Positions 1-16,133 of a stretch of DNA of 18,404 nucleotides are shown here, piece after piece; position 1 is the first letter of the stretch, and every line of letters starts with the position of its first letter. This DNA comes from a virus (lineage: Duplodnaviria > Heunggongvirae > Uroviricota > Caudoviricetes): the IMG/VR virus record IMGVR_UViG_3300029713_000154. The stretch is one strand, 5' to 3'. The notes under the pieces are model-generated. The model was given only the letters and a program-made list of their open reading frames with translations, searched no databases and was not told where the DNA came from. A program made the position numbers and the translations under genes.

Positions 1-539
1 GGAGTGCCATGATGGTGCCCTCAGTGAGCCAGAGAGTTCAGTGTACGGGAATTCGTTTGCGAGCAGAACTGATAATATCCCTTTGTTCTCTTCTTAAATA
101 TTTATCTTTCTTGATAATTTACGATAAATACAGATACAAATTTAGCGAAAAGTTTTCCCCCTACAAACAACAGTAATTCATTAACTCTTTATTTTTCATT
201 TGGTTAAAAATTTTTCTCAATTTTGGCACGCTTCTCGCAATAACACTTTTGCGTTGATACTGAATTTCAAAGGGGGTTAATCCCCCGTCGGCACACCAGG
301 AACGGCCAGGCTGTTTTCCGGGCGTGTTCCGTCAGCCTTTGACGCCAATTATGGGTTCGATTCCCACATTCATTCCTGAAATGAATACTGGTTGTAACTT
401 ATTAAATAAAAAGTGAGGGATTGCGCAGTCAGCGATCCCCGATAACGTCGCCGATAAAGACGCCGGGTAACAGGCAAAAGGGAATTCCCCTGTCGCTTCG
501 TGTCTGCTTCCGCGACGGCTGTTAAGCAAGGAATAGATA

Positions 540-1667
540 ATGATTAAGAAAATAAACGTAAGAAAAGATCAGCTGGCATTACTCTCCAGAAATGGCGATT
601 ACTACAAAGTGCTGCATGCAGGCGAGCATATTTTACCCTGGTTAAATACGCCGGAAGTGTTGCTGATTACTCTGGATGGCAGCGAAGTTCCCGACGTGCT
701 GGCGGATTATTTGCGCCGCTTTCAGCCTGATTGGGTGGAAAGATATTGCCTGGTGGCAGACATGTCGGAAACTGAAGCCGGGGCGTTGTATATGGACGGT
801 ATTTTGCTTGAGATCCTGCCGCCATCAACGCGCCGTTTATACTGGCGTGTAGAGGATGATTTGACGCTGGTGCGGATGAACACGCAGCAAGTCCAGGTAC
901 AAACGGAGGTGATGAATGCGGTATTGCAACCACGGCGCAAAGGGGCAGTTAAAGGCCGCGATGCAATACTAACGGTGCAAGTTCCGGCCTGGCACGTAGG
1001 CGTGCTGAAAATCGATGGTGAAACGCAGGCGCTGTTACCGCCGGGGCTGACCGCATACTGGAAAATAAATCATCTGGTTGAGGCTGAAGTTGTCGACACC
1101 CGCTTGCAGGTACTGGAAGTCAGCGGGCAAGAAATCTTAACGAAAGATAAGGTCAATCTGCGGATTAATCTCGCCGCTAACTGGCGCTACAGCGACGTGT
1201 TGCTGGCATTTAGTCAGTTAACGAAGCCGATTGATCATTTGTATCGGGAATTACAATTTGCCCTGCGTGAAGCGGTAGGTACGCGTACGCTGGATGAACT
1301 GCTGGAAGATAAACAGGTCATTGATGACGTTGTCAGCGAACAGGTGAAATCGCGCATGTTGCCATTTGGTATGGAGATTGCCTCATTAGGGGTGAAAGAT
1401 ATCGTCCTGCCTGGTGATATGAAAAATATCCTCGCGCAGCTGGTTGAGGCAGAGAAATCTGCGCAGGCGAATGTGATTCGCCGACGTGAAGAAACGGCAG
1501 CGACGCGCTCGTTACTGAACACCGCCAAAGTCATGGAGAACAATCCGGTAGCGTTGCGTTTAAAAGAGCTGGAAACGCTGGAGAGAGTGGCTGAGCGGAT
1601 CGATAACATCTCTGTATTTGGCGGTCTGGATCAGGTTCTGCATGGGTTGGTTAATATCAAAGGGTGA
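540..1667 (+). CDS. SPFH/band-7 (stomatin/prohibitin-like) domain protein with an extra ~140-aa N-terminal domain; no obvious transmembrane segment
   Basis: 375-aa ORF. Residues ~190-330 carry a band-7-like signature (GMEIASLGVKDIVLPGDMKNILAQ, EAEKSAQANVIRRREE). The stop at 1665-1667 lies within a few nt of the next gene start. Confidence 0.6.
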   Translation: MIKKINVRKDQLALLSRNGDYYKVLHAGEHILPWLNTPEVLLITLDGSEVPDVLADYLRRFQPDWVERYCLVADMSETEAGALYMDGILLEILPPSTRRLYWRVEDDLTLVRMNTQQVQVQTEVMNAVLQPRRKGAVKGRDAILTVQVPAWHVGVLKIDGETQALLPPGLTAYWKINHLVEAEVVDTRLQVLEVSGQEILTKDKVNLRINLAANWRYSDVLLAFSQLTKPIDHLYRELQFALREAVGTRTLDELLEDKQVIDDVVSEQVKSRMLPFGMEIASLGVKDIVLPGDMKNILAQLVEAEKSAQANVIRRREETAATRSLLNTAKVMENNPVALRLKELETLERVAERIDNISVFGGLDQVLHGLVNIKG

Positions 1668-1672
1668 GTAAC

Positions 1673-2464
1673 ATGCCATTAAATGGAGTCAGTGCTGCGA
1701 TGCGCGAAAGGGTATCGCAGCAGTTAAAAGAAATTGAACGGCGGTATGATGTGAAAGTATTGTACGCCTGTGAATCAGGGAGTCGCGGTTGGGGATTTGC
1801 CTCGCCCGACAGCGACTACGATGTACGGTTTTTGTATGTTCACCCGCTGGAATGGTATCTGCGAGTAGAGTCACCGCGCGATGTTATCGAGCTGCCCATC
1901 GATGACGAGTTAGATGTTTCCGGTTGGGAGTGGCGTAAGGCGCTGGGATTATTGAAAGGCGCGAACCCGACGCTGATAGAATGGCTGGATTCTCCGGTGG
2001 TCTATCAACAAGATGAAGAAACGATAACGGCGCTTAAGGCAATGGTCCCAACGTGGTTTTCTCCGCTGCGTGCGCGCTGGCATTACTATTCGATGGCGCA
2101 GAAAAACTTCCGCGGATATTTGCAGGGCGATGAAGTTCGACTGAAAAAATACTTTTACGTGCTGCGCCCGCTGCTGGCCGTTCGTTGGGTTGAAGCGGGA
2201 AAAGGTGTACCGCCAATGCGTTTTTCCGAATTGCTGGCGGGAAGTGAGTTGGATGCGGCATTACGCGCAGAAATAGATGAATTGCTGGAGCGTAAACAGC
2301 GTGCGGGTGAAGCGGAATATGGACTGCGCCGTCCTTTGTTACATGCGTTTATTCGTGCGGAACTGGCGCGCGGGGAAATTCCTCCGCTGTTACCAGACAG
2401 CCGGGAAGGGGACGTTAAAGAACTGGATAGTTTACTGTACCAGACGGTAATGCGCCGGGCGTGA
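1673..2464 (+). CDS. Pol-beta superfamily nucleotidyltransferase (ANT/minimal-NTase-like N-terminal domain plus helical C-terminal domain)
   Basis: Motif ESGSRGWGFASPDSDYDV fits the hG[GS]x(9-13)Dh[DE] NTase signature. The ORF track starts it at GTG 1664 (overlapping the upstream stop); ATG 1673 with GGTGA about 7 nt upstream is the more likely start. Forms an operon with the SPFH gene. Confidence 0.55.
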   Translation: MPLNGVSAAMRERVSQQLKEIERRYDVKVLYACESGSRGWGFASPDSDYDVRFLYVHPLEWYLRVESPRDVIELPIDDELDVSGWEWRKALGLLKGANPTLIEWLDSPVVYQQDEETITALKAMVPTWFSPLRARWHYYSMAQKNFRGYLQGDEVRLKKYFYVLRPLLAVRWVEAGKGVPPMRFSELLAGSELDAALRAEIDELLERKQRAGEAEYGLRRPLLHAFIRAELARGEIPPLLPDSREGDVKELDSLLYQTVMRRA

Positions 2465-2480
2465 AGCCCGGCGTTATTTT
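2453..2480 (+). terminator. Rho-independent terminator of the SPFH-NTase operon
   Basis: Stem 2453-2460 CGCCGGGC / 2466-2473 GCCCGGCG with loop GTGAA, followed by TTATTTT. The TGA stop of the NTase gene lies in the hairpin, and the stop of the convergent minus-strand gene overlaps the T-tract. Confidence 0.6.
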
Positions 2481-2934
2481 ACGGCTGATATTGCCAGCTA
2501 CTGACTAAAGCGTACAAGTGGTTTGGGGAATAGCGCCAACTCTCCTTTAATTGCAGAAATTCGGCACAAAATTCGCTGCAAAACAGGCGTTCACGCTGTT
2601 CTTTATTACCGGTAATAATTCCAAGCGCGCCGCGCCAATCATATTTTTTGCCATCATGTTTATGGAAAAACGCTTCCACGTCCTGAAGGCTGGCCTGGAG
2701 CGGCAGCATATCCCACTTATCCGCTGGCAATGGCATTATCTTTCCGCGTACACCGCGATCGCGCAGTGATGCAGAGTAACAAAGGTAACTCTTTTCACCA
2801 TGCTTAACGGCTAATTCACAGTGGGAATAACTACCGCGCGTGATTTTACGGGTAAGCCAGTCAGCCAGTCGGGCAATACCACGGTGCTCTGTTCGGCCCT
2901 TATAACAAGCGAGCCAGACAGTGGTTTTACTCAT
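2479..2934 (-). CDS. Hypothetical 151-aa protein; possible permuted papain-fold (YiiX/YaeF-like, NlpC/P60 superfamily) enzyme; last gene of the tail operon
   Basis: Start ATG overlaps the TGA stop of the fibre assembly gene (ATGA at 2931-2934). His-before-Cys arrangement (YSHCEL ... LFCSEFCAEFL) recalls the permuted papain-like family. Assignment is from memory only. Confidence 0.4.
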   Translation of the reverse strand: MSKTTVWLACYKGRTEHRGIARLADWLTRKITRGSYSHCELAVKHGEKSYLCYSASLRDRGVRGKIMPLPADKWDMLPLQASLQDVEAFFHKHDGKKYDWRGALGIITGNKEQRERLFCSEFCAEFLQLKESWRYSPNHLYALVSSWQYQP

Positions 2935-3545
2935 GCTTGCCAGCCTGTTGAATAATCGTAGTCGAGCACCGCCTGAATATCGTCCAGAGCTTCCACCGCC
3001 GCGATATGGTGCTGGGCATTGGCGAACAGGCGCATATCGTGATCCATTGTTACCGATTCAAACTGGGCGGCGATCTCGTTGGTTAACTCGATCAGACCGT
3101 TATTTTTAGTTTTCCACATTAACCCTGGAGGGATTTTTTTCTCCGCTCCCATTTTTGTGAGTGAGAGCTGTTGGATACGGCTGTTTGTATCACTGTGGAA
3201 GTGATGGTTGTTGATGATGATGTAATCGGTTGTGACGTAATCCCGTTTGGATTTTATTCTTCTTATTATATCCGCTTTTATTTCTGAAATAAATTTAAGC
3301 ATTGAATCTGTATCAACTATCCATTCTCCTTTTTTTAGTTTGTGAAATCTATCTGGTGGTGGCGTAGAGATAAAGGATAAATCTTCACAGTTAATCCAAA
3401 TTGGGATATTAGCTTTCGCATATGTCTGCCATTGCTGATCAGTTATTTCAACTAAATGTTCTACTTTAGGATAGTTGTAGTGTTCTGTATCGATCCAGTC
3501 CAGAACGATAAATGTTTCAGGATCAAAACAAGCATATTTTGTCAT
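2931..3545 (-). CDS. Tail fibre assembly (chaperone) protein, Mu U / P2 gpG-like
   Basis: 204-aa ORF immediately downstream of the fibre gene. The N-terminal half is encoded in low-GC DNA contiguous with the fibre tip; the C-terminal half is higher GC. Confidence 0.7.
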   Translation of the reverse strand: MTKYACFDPETFIVLDWIDTEHYNYPKVEHLVEITDQQWQTYAKANIPIWINCEDLSFISTPPPDRFHKLKKGEWIVDTDSMLKFISEIKADIIRRIKSKRDYVTTDYIIINNHHFHSDTNSRIQQLSLTKMGAEKKIPPGLMWKTKNNGLIELTNEIAAQFESVTMDHDMRLFANAQHHIAAVEALDDIQAVLDYDYSTGWQA

Positions 3546-3551
3546 TTTTAA

Positions 3552-5378
3552 TTACCATGATATTTTTACGAAGCCAGAGGCACCTTTTGTTCCGCTAGTA
3601 TTGCCTAAATTTGTTAACTCATTATTTTTATATTGAAAAGGAGGTAAATAAGATCCCCCAGCTCCTCCAGAACCATAACCTGTTGCTGCTGTTGGCTTTG
3701 CCATTACTGCTTTTTTTCCACCATTACTTAGGTTTTCTGTAATAACAGTACCTGAAGCCCCTCCCTTTCCATATATAGAATTTTCACCATTCTTTCCAGG
3801 ATAAAATTCTGCAGATGACGGTATTGCATTTGGTGGAGTACCTTTAGGATCGTCACTGAATTTTATATAAGGCTGCGTAGTGTTAGAGTGATAAATGTTA
3901 TATCCTCCATGGCCACCTTTTGCAGTTAGATTAGAAAACGAAGAGTCTCCACCATCAAAGCTTTTTTGTGTTGTCTCTGTTTTATCATACGAATACTTTA
4001 TTTGTGAAACAGGTGGATTGTTCCAAAAAGGACCTCCATTACCTCCAGCTCCGATCTTTACTGAAAAATGCTGGCCTGGTGCCACGTTTAAGTAATCAAC
4101 AATCAATTCTCCTGCATTACCTCCGCAGGCTTCATAATGTGATGATTGTGCTCCTCCGGCCCCCCCACCTCCGCCGCCCATAATTTCCACAAATAATATT
4201 GTTACGCCCTCAGGAACTATAAATGTTCCATTTGTAGTATAAAAACTAGTGTGGGTATGATTAGCTGGAGCTGCAGTTTTTGCCTTATCCATTGCCGCCT
4301 TCACCGCGCTCGGTGTCGCCGCCTCCGTCGTACTGTTGCTATCCGTCGCGTTATTAAGCTTCACAATCCCTTTTTGCGACAGGGTGCCGTCTGGAACACC
4401 CGTAATCTGTCCCCATGGGTGAGTATGGTTTCCCGCAGCCTTACTATTCGCCAGGTCATATGCCGCCTTCACCGCGCTCGGTGTCGCCGCCTCCGTCGTA
4501 CTGTTGCTATTGGTCGCGTTATTAAGTTTCACAATCCCTTTTTGTGTCAGGGTACCGTCAGGAATACTCGTAATCTGCCCCCAGGGGTGCGTATGACTAC
4601 CCGCAGCCTTACTATTCGCCAGGTCATACGCCGCCTTCACTGCGCTCGGTGTCGCCGCCTCCGTCGTACTGTTGCTGTCTGTCGCGTTATTAAGCTTCAC
4701 AATCCCTTTTTGTGTCAGCGTACCATCTGGTATATCAGTAATCTGACTCCAGGTATGACGATGATTTCGAGCCTCAATCATTGCCGCTTTCACCGCTTTT
4801 GGCGTAGCCGCTTTGGTTTCGTCATCACTGTCAGTGGCGTTACTCAACTGTGTAAAGCCTTTTTGCGTTAACGTAGCATCAGGATGATTAGTCGAACGCT
4901 CATGTTCATCCAGTTGTGAATCAACATAATCCCGTGTTGCCAGTACAATACTGGGGTCAACGGTGAGTGTTACCGCAGTCGTGTTGGAAACTTCCATAAT
5001 CAGGCGAATGCAAACTTGCTTACCGCTGCCGCCGGGTAATAGTGGTTTATACGACTCCGGGAATTTACCGATAGCAATGAGTTCACCATCGGTATCAAAA
5101 ACGCCGACTTCACGTACATACCAGCCGCCGATATTTTCGGGCAGCACGAGTTCCGCAATTAACCAGTTAGGGTTATTGGGTGCAACTGTTAATGTATTTA
5201 AATCACCGCGCCATACTTCATGGCGTAATTTAGTTTGGCTGACGGTGGGTTCATAATATTGTCCTCCGCTGTCACCAACAGCCATTTTTTGTAGATGAAG
5301 CTGTTTTTTATCCGCCAGAGCATTGGCAATTTTTGCCATTCCCCTGTCGGTGAGTAGAGTATAAAACTCATTGTCCAT
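3552..5378 (-). CDS. Tail fibre protein (Mu S / P2 gpH-like) with internal ~56-aa repeats and a glycine-rich C-terminal receptor-binding region
   Basis: 608 aa. Repeated TLTQKGIVKLNNATDSNSTTEAATPSAVKAA units; C-terminal GGGGGGAGG and GAGGNGG stretches. ATG at 5378 with GGAG upstream; position between gpI and the fibre assembly gene. Confidence 0.85.
   Translation of the reverse strand: MDNEFYTLLTDRGMAKIANALADKKQLHLQKMAVGDSGGQYYEPTVSQTKLRHEVWRGDLNTLTVAPNNPNWLIAELVLPENIGGWYVREVGVFDTDGELIAIGKFPESYKPLLPGGSGKQVCIRLIMEVSNTTAVTLTVDPSIVLATRDYVDSQLDEHERSTNHPDATLTQKGFTQLSNATDSDDETKAATPKAVKAAMIEARNHRHTWSQITDIPDGTLTQKGIVKLNNATDSNSTTEAATPSAVKAAYDLANSKAAGSHTHPWGQITSIPDGTLTQKGIVKLNNATNSNSTTEAATPSAVKAAYDLANSKAAGNHTHPWGQITGVPDGTLSQKGIVKLNNATDSNSTTEAATPSAVKAAMDKAKTAAPANHTHTSFYTTNGTFIVPEGVTILFVEIMGGGGGGAGGAQSSHYEACGGNAGELIVDYLNVAPGQHFSVKIGAGGNGGPFWNNPPVSQIKYSYDKTETTQKSFDGGDSSFSNLTAKGGHGGYNIYHSNTTQPYIKFSDDPKGTPPNAIPSSAEFYPGKNGENSIYGKGGASGTVITENLSNGGKKAVMAKPTAATGYGSGGAGGSYLPPFQYKNNELTNLGNTSGTKGASGFVKISW
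4293..4900. repeat. Tandem in-frame 168-bp repeats (3 near-identical copies plus a divergent fourth) inside the tail fibre gene
   Basis: Copies begin at 4293, 4461 and 4629 (TGCCGCCTTCACCGCGCTCGGTGTCGCC...), with a degenerate copy from about 4797. Period 168 bp = 56 codons. Confidence 0.8.
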
Positions 5379-5380
5379 AA

Positions 5381-6013
5381 TTACTCCGGGTAAATAGATG
5401 TAATTTCAAGGCTCCATTGCCCTGTTCCGTAATAAATCGATGTGTTGTGCTGTACTTCCCGTATCTGGAAAGGTAAAACCGTCGTCAGTTCACCACCATA
5501 AAGTGCACAGCCAATAACAGGAATAGCACTTTGGTTAATGATCCAGACGATTAATGCTTCCAGTTTTGAACGTGTGTTTTTATATTCATGAATGAGTTCT
5601 ACCAAATCATTGAAAAGGTTTTCATCCAGGCCTTTATCCACCAGCGCTATATCCACCTTAAAAAAATAAGCCCTTCCCCCATATTCAAACCATTCTGAAA
5701 TAGTTCCTGGTAATGAGAGTATTTCCAGCACCCGCCGCACCGCCCAAATTGTTCCTTTATATTTATGCAGTTCAATGGCTTGTTTAATTAACTCGCGTTT
5801 CTCCCGCTCATCGGTGGTAAATAACCAACCTTCCAGCCCCTGAACGTGAAATTGTTCTGCAAGGGCTGGTAATGCCGAAGCATCAACCTGGTCGATCAGA
5901 TAAACCATCAACGCCGTCAGATCGAGTTGGGCAAAACGCTCGGCGGCGATATTTGCCAGAATCGAAAAACGCTCATCGCTGGCAAGCGGCGGCGGTGGCA
6001 GCAATTTATCCAT
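5381..6013 (-). CDS. Baseplate/tail protein gpI-like
   Basis: Track ORF 5381..6028 starts at TTG. ATG at 6013 (MDKLLPPP...) with GGAG upstream is the likelier start. Sits between the gpJ-like gene and the fibre gene. Confidence 0.75.
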   Translation of the reverse strand: MDKLLPPPPLASDERFSILANIAAERFAQLDLTALMVYLIDQVDASALPALAEQFHVQGLEGWLFTTDEREKRELIKQAIELHKYKGTIWAVRRVLEILSLPGTISEWFEYGGRAYFFKVDIALVDKGLDENLFNDLVELIHEYKNTRSKLEALIVWIINQSAIPVIGCALYGGELTTVLPFQIREVQHNTSIYYGTGQWSLEITSIYPE

Positions 6014-7121
6014 CGCTGACTCCGGCAATCGTGACGTCTATTGCGGTGCATTCCGCCCACTCATGCGCCTGCAAAATACGTTTTGTAGGCATATTCAGCG
6101 CAACGTCATAGACGCCATCGACCTGTAACACTTTGATTATCTGGTTTGGCACAATGTCCTGCCCCAGATGTTTCTGCCGCTGTTGCGTCCAGAGGCTAAT
6201 CGCTTTACGCGCTGCAGCCAGCGTTGTCTCCTGATCGGCGGTGGTAAACAGCGTTAGCTGCGCACGGATCTCATATGGCACTCGAAGAGCGCATTTCGCA
6301 CTCACTTTGTCGGTCAGCGGACGTTTTTTCTCCTTGCTAACCTCCTGTTCAATTTGCGCGAGCAGTTCTATTCCCGGCAGTCCGTTCAGAGTTAGCGGGT
6401 AGATCTCCACGCAGCCTTCTGGCAATCCCTCGTCCGGCCCCAGTACTGCAACGTCAATAATCGACTGGCTAACAGAAAGCGTATGAAAGCGGTAGGCACC
6501 ATAGCTGCCCGCATTACTAAAGCTTTCTGGTGCCAGTTGGATACGCTGGCGCAATGCGTCATCGCTCTCTTCACCGCAGCCGCCCGTTGACGCAGTCAGG
6601 TTGGTTACGTTGATGTCATAATGACCAATCCTGTCGACCAGTGCGCTAATTTGTGCAGGCTGCCAGCCGTTACCCTGTTCACCTGCTGCGAGGCTGGTGG
6701 CAGGAACGGCGATATGCAAACTCCTGGCCGGAAGCAGAACATCTTCATCGGTGGCGAACATCACGCTATCAGAGGCACTGGCCCGCGTTCCCTGGGGAAT
6801 CAGGATATTGCTGGTATACGCGCTGACGACCGAAAACTGCAACGTCGTTTTTGCCGGCTGCGCAGGCAAACGGTGAACGCCCACCAACTCCCCTAAATAA
6901 TCCAGCATTGGCGCGCGGGAATACGCGACCAGGTTCTGTTTCGCCGCTTCCTGAATGGCGATGCGTACAAGGTTTTCACGATAGGCAAACAGGTCGATGA
7001 GCAACCGCTCAGCCTGTGCCGGATAGAGTTTTTTACCGCTGGCATCTTCGTATTGCGCAATCATCTCACTGGTAATTTGCGCAGGATCGCGGTCAATAAA
7101 ATTGGGTTCGGCTATCGCCAT
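6006..7121 (-). CDS. Baseplate assembly protein gpJ-like (baseplate wedge)
   Basis: 371 aa. ATG at 7121 with GGAGGTG SD; overlaps the gpW-like gene by 10 nt. Synteny W-J-I-fibre. Confidence 0.8.
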   Translation of the reverse strand: MAIAEPNFIDRDPAQITSEMIAQYEDASGKKLYPAQAERLLIDLFAYRENLVRIAIQEAAKQNLVAYSRAPMLDYLGELVGVHRLPAQPAKTTLQFSVVSAYTSNILIPQGTRASASDSVMFATDEDVLLPARSLHIAVPATSLAAGEQGNGWQPAQISALVDRIGHYDINVTNLTASTGGCGEESDDALRQRIQLAPESFSNAGSYGAYRFHTLSVSQSIIDVAVLGPDEGLPEGCVEIYPLTLNGLPGIELLAQIEQEVSKEKKRPLTDKVSAKCALRVPYEIRAQLTLFTTADQETTLAAARKAISLWTQQRQKHLGQDIVPNQIIKVLQVDGVYDVALNMPTKRILQAHEWAECTAIDVTIAGVSDG

Positions 7122-7471
7122 AACACCTCCGTTGAGTTGATAACGCCGTCAGCGGCGCGCCATTGCACACGTAACGTCAGATGTTCGCCGTCGATTACTG
7201 GTGTCACCTTCAGCAACCGACAGCGCGGCTCCCACTGGCGGATGGCTTCCACCGACTCCCGTACCACATGCGGAATTGCCCGCTCGATGGGGTAATCGAT
7301 GTAGTGCCACAAGTTGCTGCCAAACAGCGGTCTGTGGGGATCACTGCCGCGCGGTGTGCGCAGAATGATGTGTATTGCCTGGTGAATATCATCCAGTCCG
7401 CAGACGTATTCTTCAGGCCGCTGCAAGGCCGGTTGCCAGTGCAGCGTTGAGGGTCGTGTTTTTGTGTTCAT
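7112..7471 (-). CDS. Baseplate protein gpW / gp25-like
   Basis: 119-aa ORF of typical gpW size, positioned between the spike and gpJ genes. Weak SD. Confidence 0.8.
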   Translation of the reverse strand: MNTKTRPSTLHWQPALQRPEEYVCGLDDIHQAIHIILRTPRGSDPHRPLFGSNLWHYIDYPIERAIPHVVRESVEAIRQWEPRCRLLKVTPVIDGEHLTLRVQWRAADGVINSTEVLWR

Positions 7472-7534
7472 GAGGGTATTTTCGCCCTGAACGGGCTGTG
7501 GCGATATTAAAGCGATTTAGAAAACTGATTGATT

Positions 7535-7564
7535 AAAAAGAGAAAACCCGCCATCAGGCGGGTT
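7535..7564 (-). terminator. Intrinsic-terminator-like hairpin between the gpV and gpW genes (minus-strand sense)
   Basis: Stem 7545-7552 AACCCGCC / 7557-7564 GGCGGGTT, loop ATCA. On the minus strand it is followed by UUCUCUUUUU, immediately after the gpV stop at 7570-7572. Confidence 0.4.
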
Positions 7565-7569
7565 AAACG

Positions 7570-8271
7570 TCAGTGTGTATGGTGGTTGGAGTTGCCACCG
7601 CTGTCCTGCAATGCGCCGCTGGCCTGAACGTTGCCGATCACGTTGACATTGCCAGTTATCGTGGCGGCGTTACCGATGCCTCCACTTCCTGCCATCCCGC
7701 CAAGCCAGGTGAGTTTTTTCATTACCGTGACATTGCCAGTAAAGGTGCTCATGGGCGCATCTACCGTCACTGCTGCCGCTTTAACATCGACCTTAGTGGC
7801 GTCGATGCTGACATCGGTCGCTTTAATATCGACGGTATCGGAAGTCACGGTGACCTGTTGGGCTTTAATCTCAACGTTGGGTGATGTCAGGCGGGTACTG
7901 TCGATAACCTCAATCACGATTTTCTCGATACCGCCGTTAATCGTCAGCTGGTGGGTGCTGCGGTCATATTCAAACGCTGCGCCATCAGAAAACTGGACGT
8001 AACGTTTATCGCGCGAGGCCACAGGCGCGGTGTCAACCGTAGAATAAACTGCGCCCAGCACCACGCCATCTTCACCGTTATTGTCCAGCAGAACTTCCAC
8101 TTGCTCGCCCATATCCGGTAGCCAGTAGTCTTTATTGTCCTGGGAATTGCGTTGAAGTACCGCAAGCCAGTTGCTCTTCAGATTGTCACACTCCGGAAGC
8201 GTGACTCGCACCCGAACGCTGGTTTCGTCAATATCGCTGATAATCCCCGTTTGACGGGTTACTCCTTTCAT
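7570..8271 (-). CDS. Baseplate central spike protein gpV-like
   Basis: 233 aa. N-terminal OB-fold-like region and a C-terminal repetitive beta-helix-like segment (VTVTSDTVDIKATDVSIDATKVDVKAAAVTVDA), Gly-rich tip. Strong SD AAGGAGG. Confidence 0.85.
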   Translation of the reverse strand: MKGVTRQTGIISDIDETSVRVRVTLPECDNLKSNWLAVLQRNSQDNKDYWLPDMGEQVEVLLDNNGEDGVVLGAVYSTVDTAPVASRDKRYVQFSDGAAFEYDRSTHQLTINGGIEKIVIEVIDSTRLTSPNVEIKAQQVTVTSDTVDIKATDVSIDATKVDVKAAAVTVDAPMSTFTGNVTVMKKLTWLGGMAGSGGIGNAATITGNVNVIGNVQASGALQDSGGNSNHHTH

Positions 8272-8280
8272 ATTTCCTCC

Positions 8281-9321
8281 TTACTGGCTGGTCGCTGGCC
8301 CGCGTGACACGTCGATTTCAGTGGTATAGCCGCTGCGCACAAAACTGTGAGTCGATTTATCAATCAGCCACTGACCGGAAAGCACGCCAAAATCGGTCAG
8401 TTCAATTTTATTGCCCGCCGTCAGTTCCGGGCAGCCCATCATCCTGAGCGTTCCGGTTTGTTGATATTCGTTGTGGCTGTCGAGCGCGGCGTTGGCCTTT
8501 GCCTGTGCCGCGCCAACGTCCGGCGCCCGACTGTTCAGTTTTAGCGTGTCGGCACTGGTGCCGACTCCACGGGTAGACGGTTTTTGCTGGCTGTCGTGGG
8601 TGTAGATAACCAGTTCTTTTTTCTTACTATTTTGATGCTGTACGGTGGCATTTTTGTAGATACGGTTAATGGTATCTTTGAAGGTGAAATGCGAAACGTC
8701 TTTGCGGTCGATCGTTTTTACCGGCGCCAGGCAGCGCAGCGTGGGTAAATGCGAAAAAATCAGTTCTTTGGTGGTCACCTTTACCGCATAGCCATATTCG
8801 CTGGCCAGGCGCTTGAGAAATCCGACATCGGTTTCACCATACTGCGTTACCCGGTCGATGGTGAGCGGCTCGATTTTGCCCACCAGTTTCAGACCGTGCG
8901 TTTGGGCGATACGGCTGGCGATAGCCGAAAGCGTCGTTTCTTCAAAGCCCTGGCTGTTACGGGTACGCAGCGCCTGATTGACGGAAGTGGCGATGCCATC
9001 AATATTTACCGTAGAAGGTGGCGCTGAAATATCAATTTTATCAATAATATACTGACCACAATCGAGCAGCTTTTCCCCCTGATAACCCATATGCAGCGCC
9101 AGCGTATCGCCTTTGCCGGGATACCACTCTTTTATCCAGCGTCCATCGGTGTCATCCAGTGTAATCGCGATGGTATCTGACTCGTTTTTGATGCTGTCGT
9201 GGTAACTGATGCTGGTGACATAGGGTGTGATGTCATAAGTGATATCTTTATGCCCATACCAGAGGGTAAAAATGGGCGTGAGTGTGGCAAAGACGCCACC
9301 AGTTACGCTTATCTCAGCCAT
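8281..9321 (-). CDS. Baseplate hub protein, P2 gpD / Mu gpP-like
   Basis: 346 aa, typical gpD size; position X-D-V; GGAGA SD. Confidence 0.8.
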   Translation of the reverse strand: MAEISVTGGVFATLTPIFTLWYGHKDITYDITPYVTSISYHDSIKNESDTIAITLDDTDGRWIKEWYPGKGDTLALHMGYQGEKLLDCGQYIIDKIDISAPPSTVNIDGIATSVNQALRTRNSQGFEETTLSAIASRIAQTHGLKLVGKIEPLTIDRVTQYGETDVGFLKRLASEYGYAVKVTTKELIFSHLPTLRCLAPVKTIDRKDVSHFTFKDTINRIYKNATVQHQNSKKKELVIYTHDSQQKPSTRGVGTSADTLKLNSRAPDVGAAQAKANAALDSHNEYQQTGTLRMMGCPELTAGNKIELTDFGVLSGQWLIDKSTHSFVRSGYTTEIDVSRGPATSQ

Positions 9322-9518
9322 GGTGGGATCTCCGATAAGGTTTTATTGACGGAAATGACCGGAATAATGAGCTGAATACCGGAAGGCAGTACCGGGTAAA
9401 TGGCGACATGTGGATTGGCGACGATTATGCGTTCATAAGCCAGCGCATCACCGTAGTAATGCCATGCCAGATTATCCCAGCGTTCGCCGTCGGTGGTGAT
9501 ATGTTCAAGGTATCGCAT
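9309..9518 (-). CDS. Tail protein X (gpX, LysM-like)
   Basis: About 69 aa with the pattern YxxDxLDxIAxxYYG...ANP...LPxGxxLxIP typical of P2 gpX. The track starts at GTG 9521; ATG 9518 shares a base with the upstream TGA. Confidence 0.75.
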   Translation of the reverse strand: MRYLEHITTDGERWDNLAWHYYGDALAYERIIVANPHVAIYPVLPSGIQLIIPVISVNKTLSEIPPWLR

Positions 9519-10471
9519 CACCAGATCCTCGTAATGGTCGCGGCAGCAAGCTGGCTCACTGTGGGAGTGGTTTGTTGTACCGTTGTTCGTGCCTGATCAA
9601 CCAACGTTGCGGCTTTATCAAACGTCGCTTCGGCGATGTCGCTGGTAATGTCGTCGAAAAGCGCCTGAGCATGGTCAACCAGTGTACTGGCGTCATTGGC
9701 GCAGTCCCGGATACCTGGCATGTTACCCAGTAAAGTTTTAATCTGCGCCGACAACGCTTTTGGGAGTCCTGCCAGCGTTTGCAGATCCATTGGCTGTTTA
9801 AACAGGGTTTCGATGGCGTCGATTGTCTTTTTCAATGACGTAATTATCTTTTCACACTTTTCTTTTAACACTTTGGCCTCTTTAATCATTGCTTTCACTT
9901 TTGCCACCGTTTTTTTAATATCTTCAATGGCTTGTGTCAGTTCATCCAGCATCTCTTTGGCCTTACGCATACCTTCTTCGATGGCGTTTAATATCTGATC
10001 AAACCAGGACTCCACCATGTCGGGAAAATCGCTCGCCTTTTCCTCAATGTTAGGCTCCTGGGTGGTAATCGCCGGAGGTAAAAGTGGATTTTTAGGATCG
10101 CCGGTGTACTCCTGGAGCGACATCGTTCCGTTTTGGGCAATCACATTGCCCCAGGGATCGGTGTGCTGGTGGGTGGCGGTTAGCTCCGTAATTACAAACC
10201 AGCCGCGATAATCGCCATTGCCAAATACCAGTGCCATCGCCTTGTGAGCAAGCATGGCTTCACGCAGTCGATTAAGCTCTGTTGTGGGCTGGCAAAACTG
10301 GCTGTGCAGGGAAAATTCCAGCGCCAGCATATCCAGCTTATCGCCAATAAACTGCACACCGGGTTTGCCTTCTATACGGGCATGTGTGGCGTAATCCACG
10401 CCCATTGTGCTTTTAAAGCCGTCCCAGAATGCGACAACCTTAAATTCAATCTCTCCTAAAACGGCATACAT
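9518..10471 (-). CDS. Tail protein with gpU / Mu-N-like N-terminal domain and a C-terminal coiled-coil extension
   Basis: 317 aa. The N-terminus MYAVLGEIEFKV resembles the gpU start. The C-terminal ~170 aa is Lys/Glu/Ala-rich heptad-like sequence. Lies between the tape measure and gpX genes. Confidence 0.6.
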   Translation of the reverse strand: MYAVLGEIEFKVVAFWDGFKSTMGVDYATHARIEGKPGVQFIGDKLDMLALEFSLHSQFCQPTTELNRLREAMLAHKAMALVFGNGDYRGWFVITELTATHQHTDPWGNVIAQNGTMSLQEYTGDPKNPLLPPAITTQEPNIEEKASDFPDMVESWFDQILNAIEEGMRKAKEMLDELTQAIEDIKKTVAKVKAMIKEAKVLKEKCEKIITSLKKTIDAIETLFKQPMDLQTLAGLPKALSAQIKTLLGNMPGIRDCANDASTLVDHAQALFDDITSDIAEATFDKAATLVDQARTTVQQTTPTVSQLAAATITRIW

Positions 10472-12846
10472 CAGGCATACCCCCGGCGCTGTTGTTGCGC
10501 CATTACGTCGTTAATCATTCTTTCAAGTTCGCGTTTACTCATCGTCAACACGTTCTGAATCTCTTTAGTGGTGTTTTGTCCGTTACCCTGCACGGTAATC
10601 TGTGGCGAAAAATTCACCTGAACTTTTCCAGAGGAACGGGAAGGTAGCGTCGCCGGTTTGGTTACGGATTTACCAGGTAAAGAGGCCAATGCGGGTTTGG
10701 CGGCTGTATTTTTTGCCGCAGGTGCCGATGGCGGCGTTGTCGTTTTACTGGATGGCGCGAGTTGTTTCCCCACCGGAGGCGTTAAAATCGCACCGGCAAC
10801 GCCTGGAACAACGCTCGCGGGGGAGACGGATGCGGTATTAGTCGTGCTTGTAATAGCTGTAGCCGATCCTTCTGTACTAATACCCATCGTGGTTTTTAGC
10901 CAGTCTGGGATGACGTTTTTGACCTGATCAATAATGCCTTTCAGAGCGGGGAAGGCATTCATTATGCCGTCGGCCAGGCTAGCCAGAAGATTGCTGCCGA
11001 ACTCGCTAAAACTCGCAGGCATTTCAACACCAAACCAATTCATCACACTGGAAAAGGCGCTATAGAACAACTCCAGCGGCGACCAGTCGAGAATTAACCG
11101 ACAAATTTCTGCAATGCCGCCGTCAAAGGCCGTGGTGATACGTTGCCAGATGGTAGAAAAGAACCTGGAGATAGGCTCCCAGTTGCGATAAATCAGATAA
11201 GCAGCGCCCGCAATCGCAGTGATGACCAGACCAATGGGATTCATCAATAAAACCCTACCCAACCAGAAGACGGTCTGACCTGCCTGTTTCAGTGCGCCAA
11301 TCAGGCCACGACCAAGCAGTTGCGTTAGCCATTTTGCACCGCCACCCAATGACTTAACCGCTGATAGCATCTTACTTGCCCCGCCTGTGAGTGCCAGACT
11401 TGCCCTGACTTTCAGGAAGATATCGACCAGACGAATAAACGGCGAGGCGATGAAGTTCGCGCCCAGTTTTAAAACATTCAGCGCGCCGTTAAACAGCCAA
11501 ATCGCCCCGACGATTTTCGCAATGTTTTGCACCAGTGCCGGGTGCTCACGTAGCCAGGCGCTGAACTGGCGAACAACCGGCGTAAGGCTTTGTGCCAGCT
11601 CGCCAATCAGCGGCATTAATTGCAAGCCAATGCTGAGCCATAAATCATTTAACGCCAGCTGTAACGCTTTAGTCTGTTCAATGGGCGAGGCCATTTGCGC
11701 AGAAAAGTCGGCATCAATCAGATTCTTGCTGCTGGCTTGCATGGCAGAGGCTTTTAACTGGCGATATTCCTCCATATTCGCCAGCATAGGTGCCAGGAAT
11801 TCCACAGTTTGCGCATCGCCGAACATTTCGCCCAGATTAAATTGCGTCACCATCGATTGCAGCGCATTGCTGCGAGCAGATAAATCTTCAATCTGCATAG
11901 TGCGTTTGAAGGTGCCGAGGATCGCCGGATTCATCTTCTCAAGCTGCATTTGCACGATATGAGTCATGGCTTCGCTAACACCCATACCGTTTTGCTGATG
12001 CTCAAGCAGAGAGCCTTGCAGATCAACGCCCTGGCTGGCGAACCAGTTATCGGTTTTTTTCGAAAAGGTGGTTTGCAGAAAGTGGTCGAAATTCTCCGCC
12101 GCCGCACTGGCGCTGGCCCCGTTTTTCATGGCGATCTGCATGATGGCGGTCAGTTCAGCCATACCTTCCAGACCCTGAGCGCCGGTTTTACCTGCAAATT
12201 TCTCTATCCACTGCGTTTGTTCGGCAACGGCAGGCCCACCGCTTTTGCTAATGCCATACATCATGTTTTGCGTGGCGTGGAAATTTTCCGGGGCAATATT
12301 CAATCGATCATGAGTCGCGAGCGCGGCATTCGCCCACGTTTCAGCACTTTCGCGCGTGGCGGTGGCAGCTTTGGCGATCTCCGGCATATAACGGTTGAGA
12401 TCCTGCATCGACGACAAATTGCCTTCGATCAGCGTTTGGGCTGCGTTCTGTAAGGTGGTCTGCTGCTGGTTAAAATCCATGCTCCAGTCGCGCAGATTAA
12501 GGCTGAGCGTCTCGCGGGTTGTAGCATTCATCCCACCTTTGGTCGCCATATTGACCATGTTGTCCTGGAACTCATATGGCAACTTCCAGTCGGGGGCTTC
12601 AACATTGAATACCTTGCTAAATTGCCCGGCAAATGTTTGGGTTTTCTCCATTAGATCAGCGCGGTTCCGGCTATTTTCCTCCAGGCGGAGAGCAGAATCG
12701 GCAAGTTGCTGCGTTAGTTTGATTACTGTCGCTTGCTGAGAAGAGAGAGCTAACAAAGTTCTGGCGTTGAGTGAGCCGTAACGGGCTATTGCCTGCGTCA
12801 ACGTCTCATTACGCGCCTGAAGCTGGGTAATAATATCGTTGGCCAA
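10471..12846 (-). CDS. Tail tape measure protein
   Basis: 791 aa, Ala/Gln-rich helical N-terminal half with a central hydrophobic segment; position after the chaperone gene. Apparent TTG start at 12846 with AAGAG upstream. Confidence 0.85.
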   Translation of the reverse strand: MANDIITQLQARNETLTQAIARYGSLNARTLLALSSQQATVIKLTQQLADSALRLEENSRNRADLMEKTQTFAGQFSKVFNVEAPDWKLPYEFQDNMVNMATKGGMNATTRETLSLNLRDWSMDFNQQQTTLQNAAQTLIEGNLSSMQDLNRYMPEIAKAATATRESAETWANAALATHDRLNIAPENFHATQNMMYGISKSGGPAVAEQTQWIEKFAGKTGAQGLEGMAELTAIMQIAMKNGASASAAAENFDHFLQTTFSKKTDNWFASQGVDLQGSLLEHQQNGMGVSEAMTHIVQMQLEKMNPAILGTFKRTMQIEDLSARSNALQSMVTQFNLGEMFGDAQTVEFLAPMLANMEEYRQLKASAMQASSKNLIDADFSAQMASPIEQTKALQLALNDLWLSIGLQLMPLIGELAQSLTPVVRQFSAWLREHPALVQNIAKIVGAIWLFNGALNVLKLGANFIASPFIRLVDIFLKVRASLALTGGASKMLSAVKSLGGGAKWLTQLLGRGLIGALKQAGQTVFWLGRVLLMNPIGLVITAIAGAAYLIYRNWEPISRFFSTIWQRITTAFDGGIAEICRLILDWSPLELFYSAFSSVMNWFGVEMPASFSEFGSNLLASLADGIMNAFPALKGIIDQVKNVIPDWLKTTMGISTEGSATAITSTTNTASVSPASVVPGVAGAILTPPVGKQLAPSSKTTTPPSAPAAKNTAAKPALASLPGKSVTKPATLPSRSSGKVQVNFSPQITVQGNGQNTTKEIQNVLTMSKRELERMINDVMAQQQRRGYA

Positions 12847-13035
12847 AATTGTTTCTCTTTAATTATTGATAATGGCCCACTGGTTATTTTTCTAAAAAAG
12901 GGGCTGGGAAGAAATAAACCTGGCGGGCTTTGAAGAACTCGCAGACATCAGGTCTGCGAGCCATATTCGATCTTTATTTGGTCGCTGGCTTCATCCAGCC
13001 AGTTGCTAAAGTCATCTATGGTGAGCGCGTCTATC

Positions 13036-13353
13036 TCACTGGGTGGAAAGCGAAACCATCTCGCCAGTAGCGCCATTGCCTGCCATAGCTGGGGAGGATT
13101 CTGTAACCACGGTAAGCATGGATTGAAATCGTTTCTGCAATGCCTGGTAATCCAGCAAATCCATTTCAGCTAAATCTTCTGGCACCAGTCCGGTCATCGC
13201 CGCCATTAGCGGTTCATCCCACTCTTCGGGTTTTTCGCTGATCCGGCGCGCGTTGCGCATATCTTTTACTTTCAGGCGACGTAATTGCAGCGAGTCGATA
13301 GTATTTCCTGCTGCCGACGTAAATGGGAACTGTAAGATATAATGCTCTTTCAT
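13036..13353 (-). CDS. Tail assembly chaperone (gpE-like)
   Basis: 105-aa acidic protein between the tube and tape measure genes. No second frameshift-partner ORF is apparent. Confidence 0.55.
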   Translation of the reverse strand: MKEHYILQFPFTSAAGNTIDSLQLRRLKVKDMRNARRISEKPEEWDEPLMAAMTGLVPEDLAEMDLLDYQALQKRFQSMLTVVTESSPAMAGNGATGEMVSLSTQ

Positions 13354-13403
13354 TTTGTATCCTTATTTATGTTGCGAAGTTCGGGGCCGTAGCCCCGAAT
13401 AAT

Positions 13404-13928
13404 TTAGCCACCGATGTTATTGCGATAGGTACTTAATTGATCCACGCCGTTAACCCGAAAAATATTCGCCATATAATCAAGTTCAAGCAGCGTTTCACCA
13501 TCGACCACTTGTTTAATATAAGTACAACCAAAGGCGCTGCTGAATTCCGGGTTTTCATTCTGTTTAAATGTGCCCAAGGGATTCTTTTTAAACATCACGG
13601 TTAAATGTGTCACTAACGCTAATTGATTCGCTTTCCCCTGGGAGTTATAGCAATCAATACTGGAGCGGCACTGTAATGCTACTGCCTGCCACGGGTTTGC
13701 CGTTTTACGCATTACGTCCTGATAAAAGGAGTTCCATTTAATTTCCCCCTCCAGTTTATCGAAACCAGCCGGGAGTTCGATTTTACCGACCATACCCAGT
13801 GCTTTATGCTCTTGCATAATTAAACTGACATCCGGCAATTTAATTTCGGTTGCACGACCTAAAAGATTATTACCATCGAGATAAATATTGGCGTTGGTAA
13901 TACGGTTAATTTGAATTTTTCCAGCCAT
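13404..13928 (-). CDS. Tail tube protein (P2 FII / Mu M-like)
   Basis: 174 aa; start ATG overlaps the sheath stop (TAATG). Confidence 0.85.
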   Translation of the reverse strand: MAGKIQINRITNANIYLDGNNLLGRATEIKLPDVSLIMQEHKALGMVGKIELPAGFDKLEGEIKWNSFYQDVMRKTANPWQAVALQCRSSIDCYNSQGKANQLALVTHLTVMFKKNPLGTFKQNENPEFSSAFGCTYIKQVVDGETLLELDYMANIFRVNGVDQLSTYRNNIGG

Positions 13929-15352
13929 TAGCTATTGCTCTCCAGAGAGACTAAATATTCAGAAGTAATTTCAGTTTCAAACGTCAGACGTTCCAGCGGC
14001 GGCGGCGGGGTGAATTTATAGCTAAGCAATAAATGCCCGGCGCTGAGTTCAGCCGGTGAATTTCGCGCCGGATCGTACCAGCACTCAAAGCCAAGCAGTG
14101 CGCCGTCGGCAATCAGTTTTCGGCCCCAGGTATTTACCGATTCGGTCAGCGCGTCAATAAGAGCCTGATTAATCGGCATATCAATATACTGCTGACTGAA
14201 ATAACGGATTGACTCATTAATTACATCGCCTGTCCGGCGAACGTTTTCAAAGTTACGCATATGGGTCACGGTAGGCCATGCCGCTGTGCGGTTGCCCCAC
14301 AAGCGCAGACCAGAACCGTAACTATTGAAAATAGTGGTAATGCCGTTTTCGTTGAGCTGATTCACTTCGCTTTGTGGATCATCAATCATTGCAGAAAGCG
14401 AACGTTCAATACCGGTAATACCCTGAATTTCCTGGTTTGAGTTGCTCCACCAGAAACCTTTTTCGAGGTCTACTTTGGCACGTAGCCCGGCAGCGCGCGA
14501 AGAGAGTGGTTCGAGAACTTCCTGGTTAGTGATGCCATCGTAAACTTTGACGTGTGGGTAACATAAACGCACACGATCAGAGCTGGTATTGAAGTTGATA
14601 GCCCCTTGCGAACCGCGTCCAGCCAATACCTGCTGGAATGTCGTCCCAATCGGAGCATCAATGTAGGTAAGCGCACCGAGTTTTTCCGCTTGTGCAATCA
14701 GCTCAGTAGTTACTGATTTTTGCGTACAAAACACGGGAGCAAGCAGGATTTTGGCGTAGAAACCGTACAGGTTATAGGTGTCCTGAAGGAGTTTCATCCC
14801 CGTGCGGTCGCCTGCGGTATTTACGGCACCGATAATATCGGCTGCGGTGACCTTTGTAGGGTCGCACCAGGAATAATAGGCGCAAACTTTCGCACCAGGA
14901 GGAATGTCGGCTCCTTTACGGGTAATTATGCCTGTTTGTTCATCTACGCTAAATGCTGCGGTGTTAAAGGTTGATGAATTTGATGAAGAGGGCTTTAGTA
15001 CCACGTTACGCACATTGCGGTGAGCGAGCTTCGCCTGGTTGTTAGCGTCAAAAGTGATACTCTCATTGCTGATGTTGGAGCCATGTTTTGCCGGATCCAG
15101 CACGTTAATCACCACCACCGTACCGGCACCGTGGTCATAAATCGCCTTCAGTGCCTGTGGGATCGTAAAGTTAGCCTGAGTCGAGCCAAACTGCGCAGCA
15201 TCGCTTTCAGAAAGGCATAATGTTGGTTTATTTACCGGACCGCAGGGGGCCGTACCGATTAAAGCGATGACGGCGGATTTTACCGCTTTAACCGGACGCG
15301 GGCCGGTTTCAATTTCAATGGTTTCTACACCGTGCAGGTAATTAGCTGCCAT
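13928..15352 (-). CDS. Contractile tail sheath protein (P2 FI / Mu L-like)
   Basis: About 474 aa. The track begins at TTG 15358; ATG 15352 with GAGGA SD is the likelier start. Size and position are typical of a sheath gene. Confidence 0.9.
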   Translation of the reverse strand: MAANYLHGVETIEIETGPRPVKAVKSAVIALIGTAPCGPVNKPTLCLSESDAAQFGSTQANFTIPQALKAIYDHGAGTVVVINVLDPAKHGSNISNESITFDANNQAKLAHRNVRNVVLKPSSSNSSTFNTAAFSVDEQTGIITRKGADIPPGAKVCAYYSWCDPTKVTAADIIGAVNTAGDRTGMKLLQDTYNLYGFYAKILLAPVFCTQKSVTTELIAQAEKLGALTYIDAPIGTTFQQVLAGRGSQGAINFNTSSDRVRLCYPHVKVYDGITNQEVLEPLSSRAAGLRAKVDLEKGFWWSNSNQEIQGITGIERSLSAMIDDPQSEVNQLNENGITTIFNSYGSGLRLWGNRTAAWPTVTHMRNFENVRRTGDVINESIRYFSQQYIDMPINQALIDALTESVNTWGRKLIADGALLGFECWYDPARNSPAELSAGHLLLSYKFTPPPPLERLTFETEITSEYLVSLESNS

Positions 15353-15539
15353 GTACAATTTCCTCTACGTTATTTTGTTCTTCCTGAGTGATGACAGGAG
15401 TCAGATGATTGCGGGCAATCATGGTCATGACCCACTCGTTGTCTTCTGGCAGATCAATTTCACTGTTCGGCCACAATAAGATTTCTTGTCCATCGGCAAG
15501 GGTGACGCCGCTTGCCGGGCCGTTGTAGATGTATTTCAT
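15342..15539 (-). CDS. Small tail-associated protein (65 aa), function unknown
   Basis: ATGA-type coupling to the upstream gene; overlaps the sheath start. Conserved position immediately upstream of the sheath gene. Confidence 0.45.
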   Translation of the reverse strand: MKYIYNGPASGVTLADGQEILLWPNSEIDLPEDNEWVMTMIARNHLTPVITQEEQNNVEEIVHGS

Positions 15540-15991: not shown

Positions 15992-16046
15992 ATGAGGTGT
16001 ACCTTAATTACCGCTCACTTCGTTATCGTTGAGATGTATTATGAAG

Positions 16047-16091
16047 CAGTGAAGGTGAAGAATCTTTTAATGTGATTTAGAGAAAAAATTG
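16047..16091 (-). promoter_or_regulatory. Candidate activator-dependent late promoter element upstream of the tail operon
   Basis: 45-nt block shared with the lysis-operon upstream region at 17406-17450; sense strand CNATTTTTT-N28-CTTCACTG at identical spacing. Confidence 0.35.
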
Positions 16092-16100
16092 AATGGCTAT

Positions 16101-16133
16101 AAAAAATCCCCACACTTACGTAAAGGTGGGGAT
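16101..16133 (-). terminator. Rho-independent terminator after the lysis cassette
   Basis: Stem 16106-16113 ATCCCCAC / 16126-16133 GTGGGGAT, followed on the minus strand by UUUUUU. Lies 5 nt after the spanin-like gene stop. Confidence 0.55.

Follow-up and report, generated by a model that had tools for sequence, protein, structure and literature searches.

An SPFH-RlaP gene pair with two structured leader RNAs at the yjbD-lysC site of Escherichia coli: a probable reduced copy of the enterobacterial RtcR/sigma-54 RNA-repair operon

Location and gene content of the locus

The stretch of DNA analysed here, referred to as the window, has a length of 18,404 nt and belongs to IMG/VR virus record IMGVR_UViG_3300029713_000154 (Caudoviricetes). 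It is part of the Escherichia coli chromosome and represents the slot between yjbD and lysC; positions 1-3000 are 100% identical to E. coli strains such as D7 and E2. The subject of this study is a gene pair encoding an SPFH/Band-7 protein and a nucleotidyltransferase (NTase) of the RlaP family, together with a promoter and two structured RNAs in front of it. We consider this region (positions ~100-2480) to be, with a probability of about 60%, a reduced copy of the enterobacterial RtcR/sigma-54 RNA-repair operon without ligase and regulator genes.

The SPFH ('slipin') gene occupies positions 540-1667 on the plus strand and codes for 375 amino acids (aa). It is followed on the same strand by the RlaP-family (PF10127) Pol-beta NTase gene at 1673-2464 (263 aa), for which an alternative GTG start is present at 1664. 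RefSeq places the start at the ATG at 1673, which has the better ribosome-binding site. The two genes are separated by 5 nt if the ATG is used, while the GTG start leads to a 4-bp overlap with the SPFH stop codon. In E. coli genomes with 100% identity, the products are labelled 'slipin family protein' and 'nucleotidyltransferase domain-containing / DNA polymerase beta superfamily protein' in RefSeq. The unit is closed by an intrinsic terminator (2452-2479, plus strand) with a 9-bp stem containing 8 G-C pairs, followed by TATTTT. Its hairpin (2452-2474) is the sole plus-strand terminator-like site within positions 1-3000 and is common to the SPFH-RlaP unit and the convergent 151-aa open reading frame (ORF) of the neighbouring tail island. 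A previous annotation made from the letters without database searches (the sequence-only reading) had described tight linkage and a strong terminator, and both were found as described. Neither a terminator-like site nor a sigma-70-like promoter was found on the plus strand between the leader and the SPFH gene, so that leader, SPFH and RlaP would most simply form a single transcription unit with one transcript from ~249 to ~2479.

Of 5426 complete E. coli genomes, the denominator of all presence counts given below, 1632 (30%) contain the pair. It is always chromosomal and essentially single-copy, with a median of one place per genome and a maximum of two. Relatives outside the species were collected with a 50%-cluster homologue search and a second query for diversity, as the first homologue search yielded only near-identical E. 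coli proteins. A scan taking one genome per species resulted in 80 loci with SPFH homologues, which are full length including the N-terminal domain and show 44-97% identity to the window protein. Partner genes at these loci were scored by tblastn with RlaP, RtcB and RtcR.

The SPFH protein

Residues 147-318 of the SPFH protein match the Band_7/SPFH Pfam family (E=2.8e-26), which places the protein in the SPFH/Band-7 superfamily (PF01145), and residues 154-373 align to PDB chains of stomatin, QmcA and HflK/C. The AlphaFold2 model, based on 72 diverse homologues, reached a pLDDT of 91.7 and a pTM of 0.76. In this model, the N-terminus is confidently predicted as a beta-rich, soluble domain consisting of two five-stranded beta units (residues 1-69 and 70-130), each followed by a helix. 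A third beta unit runs into the SPFH domain, and helices span residues 292-353 in the long C-terminal helical (coiled-coil) region. The protein contains no hydrophobic segment that could serve as a membrane anchor (maximal Kyte-Doolittle 19-residue mean of 1.13). These results agree with the sequence-only reading, which had called the protein cytoplasmic-looking with an extra N-terminal domain. It had also proposed profile and structure-prediction searches, which identified both the SPFH and the NTase domain and gave a confident SPFH model; the N-terminal ~140 residues matched no Pfam family. Judging from the model, we conclude that the protein is soluble and features duplicated SPFH-like beta modules. 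By analogy to all solved SPFH assemblies, it probably assembles into a ring or cage.

No NfeD-family gene is present in the window or at the examined SPFH loci, where RlaP and, in related bacteria, also RtcB and RtcR are encoded next to the SPFH gene; the partner is indeed atypical for an SPFH protein, as had been noted. The membrane-bound SPFH-NfeD pairs (QmcA-YbbJ, YqiK-YqiJ, PH1511-PH1510) and HflK/C-FtsH share with the window protein the SPFH fold and the long C-terminal helix through which rings or cages are assembled. In contrast to them, the window protein lacks a transmembrane anchor and an NfeD or protease partner, and instead features two extra N-terminal beta-repeats and RNA-repair partners. 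A different partner for this SPFH clade was observed at betaproteobacterial loci lacking both rtcB and RlaP (L060 7153-8262; L064, L066-L068, L070, L071, L075), at which a conserved 369-aa AAA-family ATPase (PF00004, E=4e-8) is encoded 3' of the SPFH gene.

The RlaP nucleotidyltransferase

The second protein matches Pfam family PF10127 ('RlaP, RNA repair pathway DNA polymerase beta family') with E=4.2e-96 and 321.9 bits against a cut-off of 23. The match is full length (profile positions 1-248 of 249) and corroborates the Pol-beta fold assigned earlier, while a sequence search of the PDB with RlaP gave no match. The Pol-beta signature G39-S40, D51-x-D53 and D84 is intact in the window protein and does not vary among 38 orthologues; for the family, three Asp residues have been described as strictly conserved (PMC12776372). 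Two Pseudomonas RlaPs, one from P. fluorescens and one from P. aeruginosa, whose genes lie between rtcB and rtcA, add 1-2 NMP to RNA 3'-OH ends, favour the 5' half of a nicked-tRNA mimic and were proposed to restore nucleotides lost to 'smart' ribotoxins such as RloC (PMC12776372). Based on its sequence, the window enzyme is predicted to add 1-2 nt to RNA 3'-OH ends in the same manner. The family name stands for 'RNA-ligase-associated Pol-beta', an association not seen here: the window contains no RNA ligase gene beside RlaP and the nearest RtcB in the same strain (E2) is encoded ~685 kb away.

Codon comparisons between E. coli and other Escherichia lineages (4-14% DNA difference) yielded ratios of synonymous-only to non-synonymous differences of 51:7, 39:8 and 94:11 for the SPFH gene and of 49:10, 38:7 and 78:22 for RlaP. 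Given this purifying selection and the intact Pol-beta signature, both genes look functional rather than like parts of a decaying remnant.

Promoter and upstream repeat array

The sequence-only reading did not mention the promoter and the two leader RNAs located at positions 100-540. A sigma-54 (-24/-12) promoter, TGGCACGCTTCTCGCAAT, is present at 224-241 on the plus strand. It is the sole match to TGGCAC-N5-TYGCW in the window (0.04 expected by chance), is nearly invariant in 23 aligned enterobacterial loci and differs little from TGGCACGACGGTTGCAAT, the promoter of rtcBA in the same strain; it is hence of the rtcBA type. No sigma-70-like site was found on the plus strand upstream of the SPFH gene.

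Around 90-120 bp upstream of this promoter, a repeat array of the form TTATCT-N5-GATAAT-N4-CGATAA-N5-GATAC extends over positions 102-137 (plus strand). An equivalent TTATCC..GATAA..CGATA array abuts the start codon of the divergent rtcR in Citrobacter, Enterobacter, Klebsiella, Phytobacter and other loci, and a related TATCC..CGATAT array lies upstream of the E. coli rtcBA promoter. We therefore infer that the array is a candidate RtcR enhancer (upstream activating sequence); it may also, or instead, serve yjbD. The yjbD-lysC spacer of strain K-12, which lacks the pair, measures 252 bp (L086 3633-3884) and retains the region's left portion as far as approximately window position 150, and with it the TTATC..GATAA repeats. 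The repeats in K-12 are either a relic of the enhancer of a deleted operon or belong to the regulation of yjbD.

Structured leader RNAs

Leader RNA 1 (~150 nt; 246-399, plus strand) is composed of closing stems, a short hairpin, a long bulged arm, a T-arm and a further hairpin. Its structure was derived manually and then tested by a covariance-model search and pair counts. The covariance model, R1, yielded 31 matches in 976 kb, all of which are located immediately upstream of an SPFH gene; the window RNA scored 138 bits (E=4e-27). In the alignment fitted to the model, compensatory changes were observed in 34 of 38 pairs, and 89% of the cells are paired, compared to 38-50% when the partners were slid. 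The single-sequence fold of RNA 1 is no better than that of shuffled sequences (z=-0.6), so the support for its structure comes from covariation. An RNAalifold structure of 12 sequences, in which a G-run pairs with the T-loop, was rejected, since its paired columns are invariant.

The T-arm of RNA 1, GGTTCGATTCC (354-364, plus strand), is a perfect T-arm of the tRNA type. The T-loop motif is unique in the window (0.01 expected by chance) and, in nearly all of 84 loci, is found within the 900 nt that precede the SPFH gene.

Leader RNA 2 (~417-520, plus strand) consists of a small hairpin (~417-440) and a long bulged stem (~446-518), and ends ~20 nt before the SPFH start codon. RNAalifold analysis of a sequence-only MAFFT alignment of 18 loci showed compensatory changes in 21 of 25 pairs. 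Here, 94% of the cells are paired, against 36-53% when slid, values that were reached by none of 500 shuffles; the single-sequence fold has a z-score of -3.0.

A search of the leader against Rfam, both at the gathering threshold and at E<=10, revealed no relevant family for either RNA and no Y-RNA. Matches to SorX were rejected, as they cover only the terminator hairpin. ARAGORN called no tRNA in the window or in the enterobacterial loci. At more distant loci (Neisseriaceae, Burkholderiales and others), the sequence at the corresponding position scores as a tRNA, often with odd anticodons (ATT, TTA, AGG or undetermined). These RNAs are presumably the band-7-associated tRNAs (b7a-tRNAs), and RNA 1 appears to be the enterobacterial counterpart of this 'band-7-associated tRNA-like' RNA.

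Several distant SPFH homologues (45-54% identity) from Burkholderiales, Gammaproteobacteria and other metagenome-assembled genomes are encoded inside or beside arrays of 5-25 tRNAs (L053, L061, L064, L071, L081, L083, L084; SPFH gene at ~6001 in most). A tRNA-like gene with an aberrant anticodon is often found directly upstream of the SPFH gene. Such loci resemble the stress-induced tRNA 'L-arrays' linked to rtcB in cyanobacteria (PMC8421152).

Gene context in related bacteria

Conservation of the gene neighbourhood, a check proposed in the sequence-only reading, links the pair to RNA repair. A divergent rtcR is present at 52 of the 80 SPFH loci, rtcB follows immediately downstream of the SPFH gene at 41 and RlaP occurs at 37. 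In the commonest layout (24 loci, rtcR <-> SPFH-rtcB-rlaP), rtcB lies between the SPFH and RlaP genes and the gap of ~1.23 kb between them encodes a 408-aa RtcB. The full form of this enterobacterial 'second rtc locus' is rtcR <-> (tRNA-like RNA)-SPFH-rtcB-rlaP. The gene order in Enterobacter bugandensis, rluF-yjbD...rtcR <-> SPFH-rtcB-rlaP-lysC-pgi, corresponds to the exact chromosomal site of the window, and the operon is found at this yjbD-lysC site, with no island present, in Citrobacter, Enterobacter, Klebsiella and others.

Loci with rtcR <-> SPFH-rlaP that lack rtcB were found in Citrobacter, Klebsiella oxytoca, Mangrovibacter, Brenneria, Lonsdalea and Hafnia. Among the loci examined, Escherichia alone has RlaP with neither rtcR nor rtcB. 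One copy of a short direct repeat, AAAGGATAA-N4-6-ATG, lies where the SPFH gene ends, and a second copy where rtcB ends (L012 7105-7140 and 8340-8375; also L026, L009 and L014), and C. amalonaticus is polymorphic for rtcB. Compared with the junctions lacking rtcB (L006, L010, L011, L013; window 1655-1675), it appears from the sequences that rtcB was lost cleanly between the short AAAGGATAA repeats, and the Escherichia/Citrobacter junction fits such a deletion.

The missing partners are encoded elsewhere in the genome. Strain E2, in which the co-occurrence of the pair and the canonical rtcR-rtcBA was checked directly, carries rtcA-rtcB <-> rtcR at the malT-glpR locus, and rtcR was detected in at least 4053 of the E. 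coli genomes (a lower bound). The canonical RtcR of E2 shares 62% identity with the SPFH-linked Enterobacter RtcR, with nearly identical C-terminal DNA-binding helix-turn-helix (HTH) regions (NDADRLRKYLARFGLTWEAV vs NDADRLRKYLARFDLSWERV), and canonical and SPFH-linked RtcB are 72% identical. Since these partners are present in the same genome and similar in sequence, it is plausible that the canonical RtcR activates the unit in trans and that the canonical RtcB and RtcA work with it.

The pairing, which the sequence-only reading could not assign to a named system, can be assigned to one. The NTase is RlaP, and 10.1101/312249, citing Burroughs & Aravind 2016, identifies this SPFH clade as the Band-7 component of RtcB-type RNA-repair operons, in which Band-7 and a b7a-tRNA adjoin RtcB. 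Similarly, the SPFH gene paFlo8 of P. aeruginosa PA14 is described as 'embedded within the rtc locus' (PMC13086221). These predicted operons, of which P. aeruginosa rtcR-PaFlo8-rtcB-rlaP-rtcA is an example (10.1101/312249, PMC12776372, PMC7824862), share with the window the SPFH clade, the RlaP family and a sigma-54/RtcR-type promoter, and their tRNA-like RNA has a candidate counterpart upstream of the SPFH gene in the window, and full orthologous operons are located at the same chromosomal site in sister genera. Unlike them, the Escherichia locus lacks rtcB, rtcA and rtcR, and its RNA has diverged so far that it does not score as a tRNA. For the second structured RNA of the Escherichia version, no description was found in the literature searched.

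The canonical E. coli rtcR-rtcBA and Salmonella rsr-yrlBA-rtcBA operons also have an RtcR-type sigma-54 promoter. In Salmonella, the structured non-coding RNAs YrlA and YrlB, which contain a tRNA-like module, precede the repair genes in the same way as the leader RNAs of the window, and an RNA-binding or scaffold protein is encoded ahead of the enzymes (Ro60 in the rsr operon, SPFH in the window). In contrast to these operons, the window unit encodes an NTase rather than a Ro60/TROVE protein, ligase or cyclase, and its leader matches no Y-RNA in Rfam.

Neighbouring tail cluster and slot occupants

A contractile-tail cluster (window 2479-17360, minus strand; 17897-18238, plus strand) is inserted between RlaP and lysC. 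It encodes a tail fibre, a DUF4376 protein, baseplate J/W/V/I, gpD, gpX, tape measure, tube, sheath, holin, lytic transglycosylase and a Mor-type activator. Head, integrase and replication genes were not found in the cluster, which looks tailocin-like. Its baseplate region is present in only 197 of the E. coli genomes, compared to 1632 with the pair, and thus the pair is independent of the island. The sequence-only reading had attached meaning to the position beside a mobile-element-derived island and suggested comparing the presence of both; this position turned out to be incidental.

In serotype O111:H8 (L002 7961-8887; also L005), a gene for a zeta-toxin-family P-loop kinase (308 aa, PF06414, E=1e-40), with no obvious antitoxin annotated, is located between the pair and lysC without a tail cluster. 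As O111:H8 and K-12 differ at this position, the slot 3' of RlaP takes up varying insertions, of which the tail cluster is one.

Three further observations concern the surroundings of the pair. The 608-aa tail-fibre ORF (window 3552-5378, minus strand) contains 3-4 tandem repeats of ~45 aa (...GTLTQKGIVKLNNATDSNSTTEAATPSAVKAAYDLANSKAAG.HTHPW.QIT...) and a glycine-rich C-terminal half. The GC content is low (0.38-0.44) over positions 3000-4500 relative to the surroundings. Upstream of the window in strain E2 (L001 1192-2766), a gene for a type III effector toxin of the ShET2/EspL2 family replaces arpA between aceK and iclR.

Proposed function and alternative explanations

If the unit is a reduced RNA-repair operon, its function could be as follows. 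Cleavage of tRNA or rRNA by ribotoxins or under stress would produce fragments with 2',3'-cyclic phosphates, which would activate the canonical RtcR encoded elsewhere in the genome. RtcR would then fire both rtcBA and the sigma-54 promoter of the window; the Escherichia unit is probably under the control of RtcR in trans, the basis for this being the sequence conservation of the array and of the RtcR HTH. RlaP would restore 1-2 nt on the trimmed 3'-OH ends of broken tRNAs. The SPFH protein may oligomerise in the manner of stomatin or HflK/C, forming a soluble ring or cage, and act as a scaffold: together with the tRNA-like RNAs, the assembly would hold or sequester substrates and enzymes. RtcB and RtcA, supplied in trans, would finally seal the break.

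Several findings weigh against this reading. The locus contains neither a ligase nor a regulator gene, so that cooperation with RtcB and RtcR is something we infer, and the pair is absent from 70% of E. coli and hence dispensable. The spacing of the repeat array is off by ~4 nt from that in the canonical rtcBA promoter region, and K-12 keeps the array without the pair, so the array may not be an RtcR site. RNA 1 is recognised by neither ARAGORN nor the Rfam tRNA model and its T-arm lies outside the closing stem; the term 'tRNA-like' therefore refers to the T-loop and to positional homology. The 3'-OH end produced by RlaP is not directly ligatable by RtcB, a problem raised by the authors of the biochemical study themselves (PMC12776372). 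Finally, deletion of paFlo8 caused no phenotype in growth, virulence, motility, biofilm or oxidative-stress assays (PMC13086221).

The loss of both rtcR and rtcB at all Escherichia loci examined could also mean that genes and leader became functionless afterwards and are heading for deletion as in K-12-like strains, where only the left end of the region is left in the spacer; the absence of the pair from ~70% of the complete genomes would fit such decay. We nevertheless regard it as unlikely, because there are 4-8 times as many synonymous-only as non-synonymous codon differences in each of the two genes, RlaP retains its catalytic GS/DxD/D residues, and the unit still has its promoter, its two RNAs and its terminator. 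Among 40 records sampled across the ranking of the pair-bearing genomes, only one is a partial match, while the others have both genes annotated and intact. In addition, SPFH-RlaP units lacking rtcB recur stably, with rtcR, in the genera Citrobacter, Klebsiella, Mangrovibacter, Brenneria, Lonsdalea and Hafnia. This recurrence in several genera is, at the same time, an argument for a role independent of ligation, in which RlaP would tag or 'cap' RNA 3' ends (of tRNA halves or the leader RNAs) and the SPFH assembly would store them. The effect could be to modulate the pool of RtcR-activating fragments or to shield RNAs from exonucleases, rather than repair. The 3'-OH products of RlaP, which are not direct substrates of RtcB, would be in line with this. 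Many distant SPFH homologues without rtcB and RlaP nearby keep tRNA-like RNAs or whole tRNA arrays, which makes RNA the most constant partner of SPFH. Since rtcB lies between the two genes in most loci, which argues for a link to ligation, we rate both this role and the effect ascribed to it as quite improbable.

The sequence-only reading had considered an accessory role in defence, stress or toxicity. An accessory character is in accordance with the presence of the pair in 30% of the genomes, whereas the defence or toxin part found no support. Pol-beta NTases are common in defence systems, and an anti-phage or toxin-like module carried as island cargo, with the NTase as effector or signal generator and SPFH as sensor or membrane effector, would explain the patchy distribution and the variable slot that also takes up a tail-like island or a zeta-toxin gene. 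RNA repair itself is part of ribotoxin and phage conflicts (PMC12776372, PMC7824862). However, PADLOC-DB v2 models gave no match to SPFH or RlaP at E<=0.01, no homologues of either were detected in 50,697 phage records, and matches in the plasmid collection were confined to Mb-sized or non-mobilisable replicons, with none on mobilisable plasmids. Across Enterobacteriaceae, the locus has the conserved synteny and placement of vertically inherited genes, which argues against mobile cargo, as does the independence from the tail island. Its conserved partners are RtcR, RtcB and a tRNA-like RNA instead of defence genes, and the activity demonstrated for the RlaP family is the extension of RNA 3' ends and not the synthesis of cyclic signals (PMC12776372). 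Such a module is accordingly the least credible of the explanations considered here, and the unit is conflict-related only insofar as RNA repair counters ribotoxins.

Within the favoured reading of a reduced RNA-repair operon, the SPFH protein could go beyond a simple scaffold. The soluble protein might form a vault-like cytoplasmic cage that packs the two leader RNAs, and possibly broken tRNAs, with RlaP and RtcB; we consider this extension doubtful. The eukaryotic vault (major vault protein, vault RNA and TEP1/vPARP) was among the systems compared with the SPFH unit, and comparison of the N-terminal domain with major-vault-protein repeats gave weak support; a specific kinship with the vault is possible. 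If true, the cage would be a bacterial RNA-repair compartment and, in E. coli, an autonomous supplement, under RtcR control, to the canonical Rtc system, with two unannotated non-coding RNA genes of the pangenome.

Significance for the Rtc system

The function of SPFH/Band-7 proteins and tRNA-like RNAs in Rtc-type repair is a purely bioinformatic prediction, for which the only functional data found are those of the P. aeruginosa knockout without a phenotype. The present analysis adds two conserved structured RNAs that were missed by genome annotation and Rfam. About one third of natural E. coli, including lineages of Shiga toxin-producing E. coli (STEC) O111 and O103, carry a minimal version consisting of the promoter, the two RNAs, SPFH and RlaP. 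It genetically separates the scaffold/NTase/RNA module from the ligation module in the most tractable host, so that RtcR dependence, nucleotide restoration by RlaP after the action of 'smart' anticodon nucleases and the ligands of SPFH become directly testable. The Escherichia version isolates the least understood components of the RNA-repair system, namely SPFH, the RNAs and RlaP.

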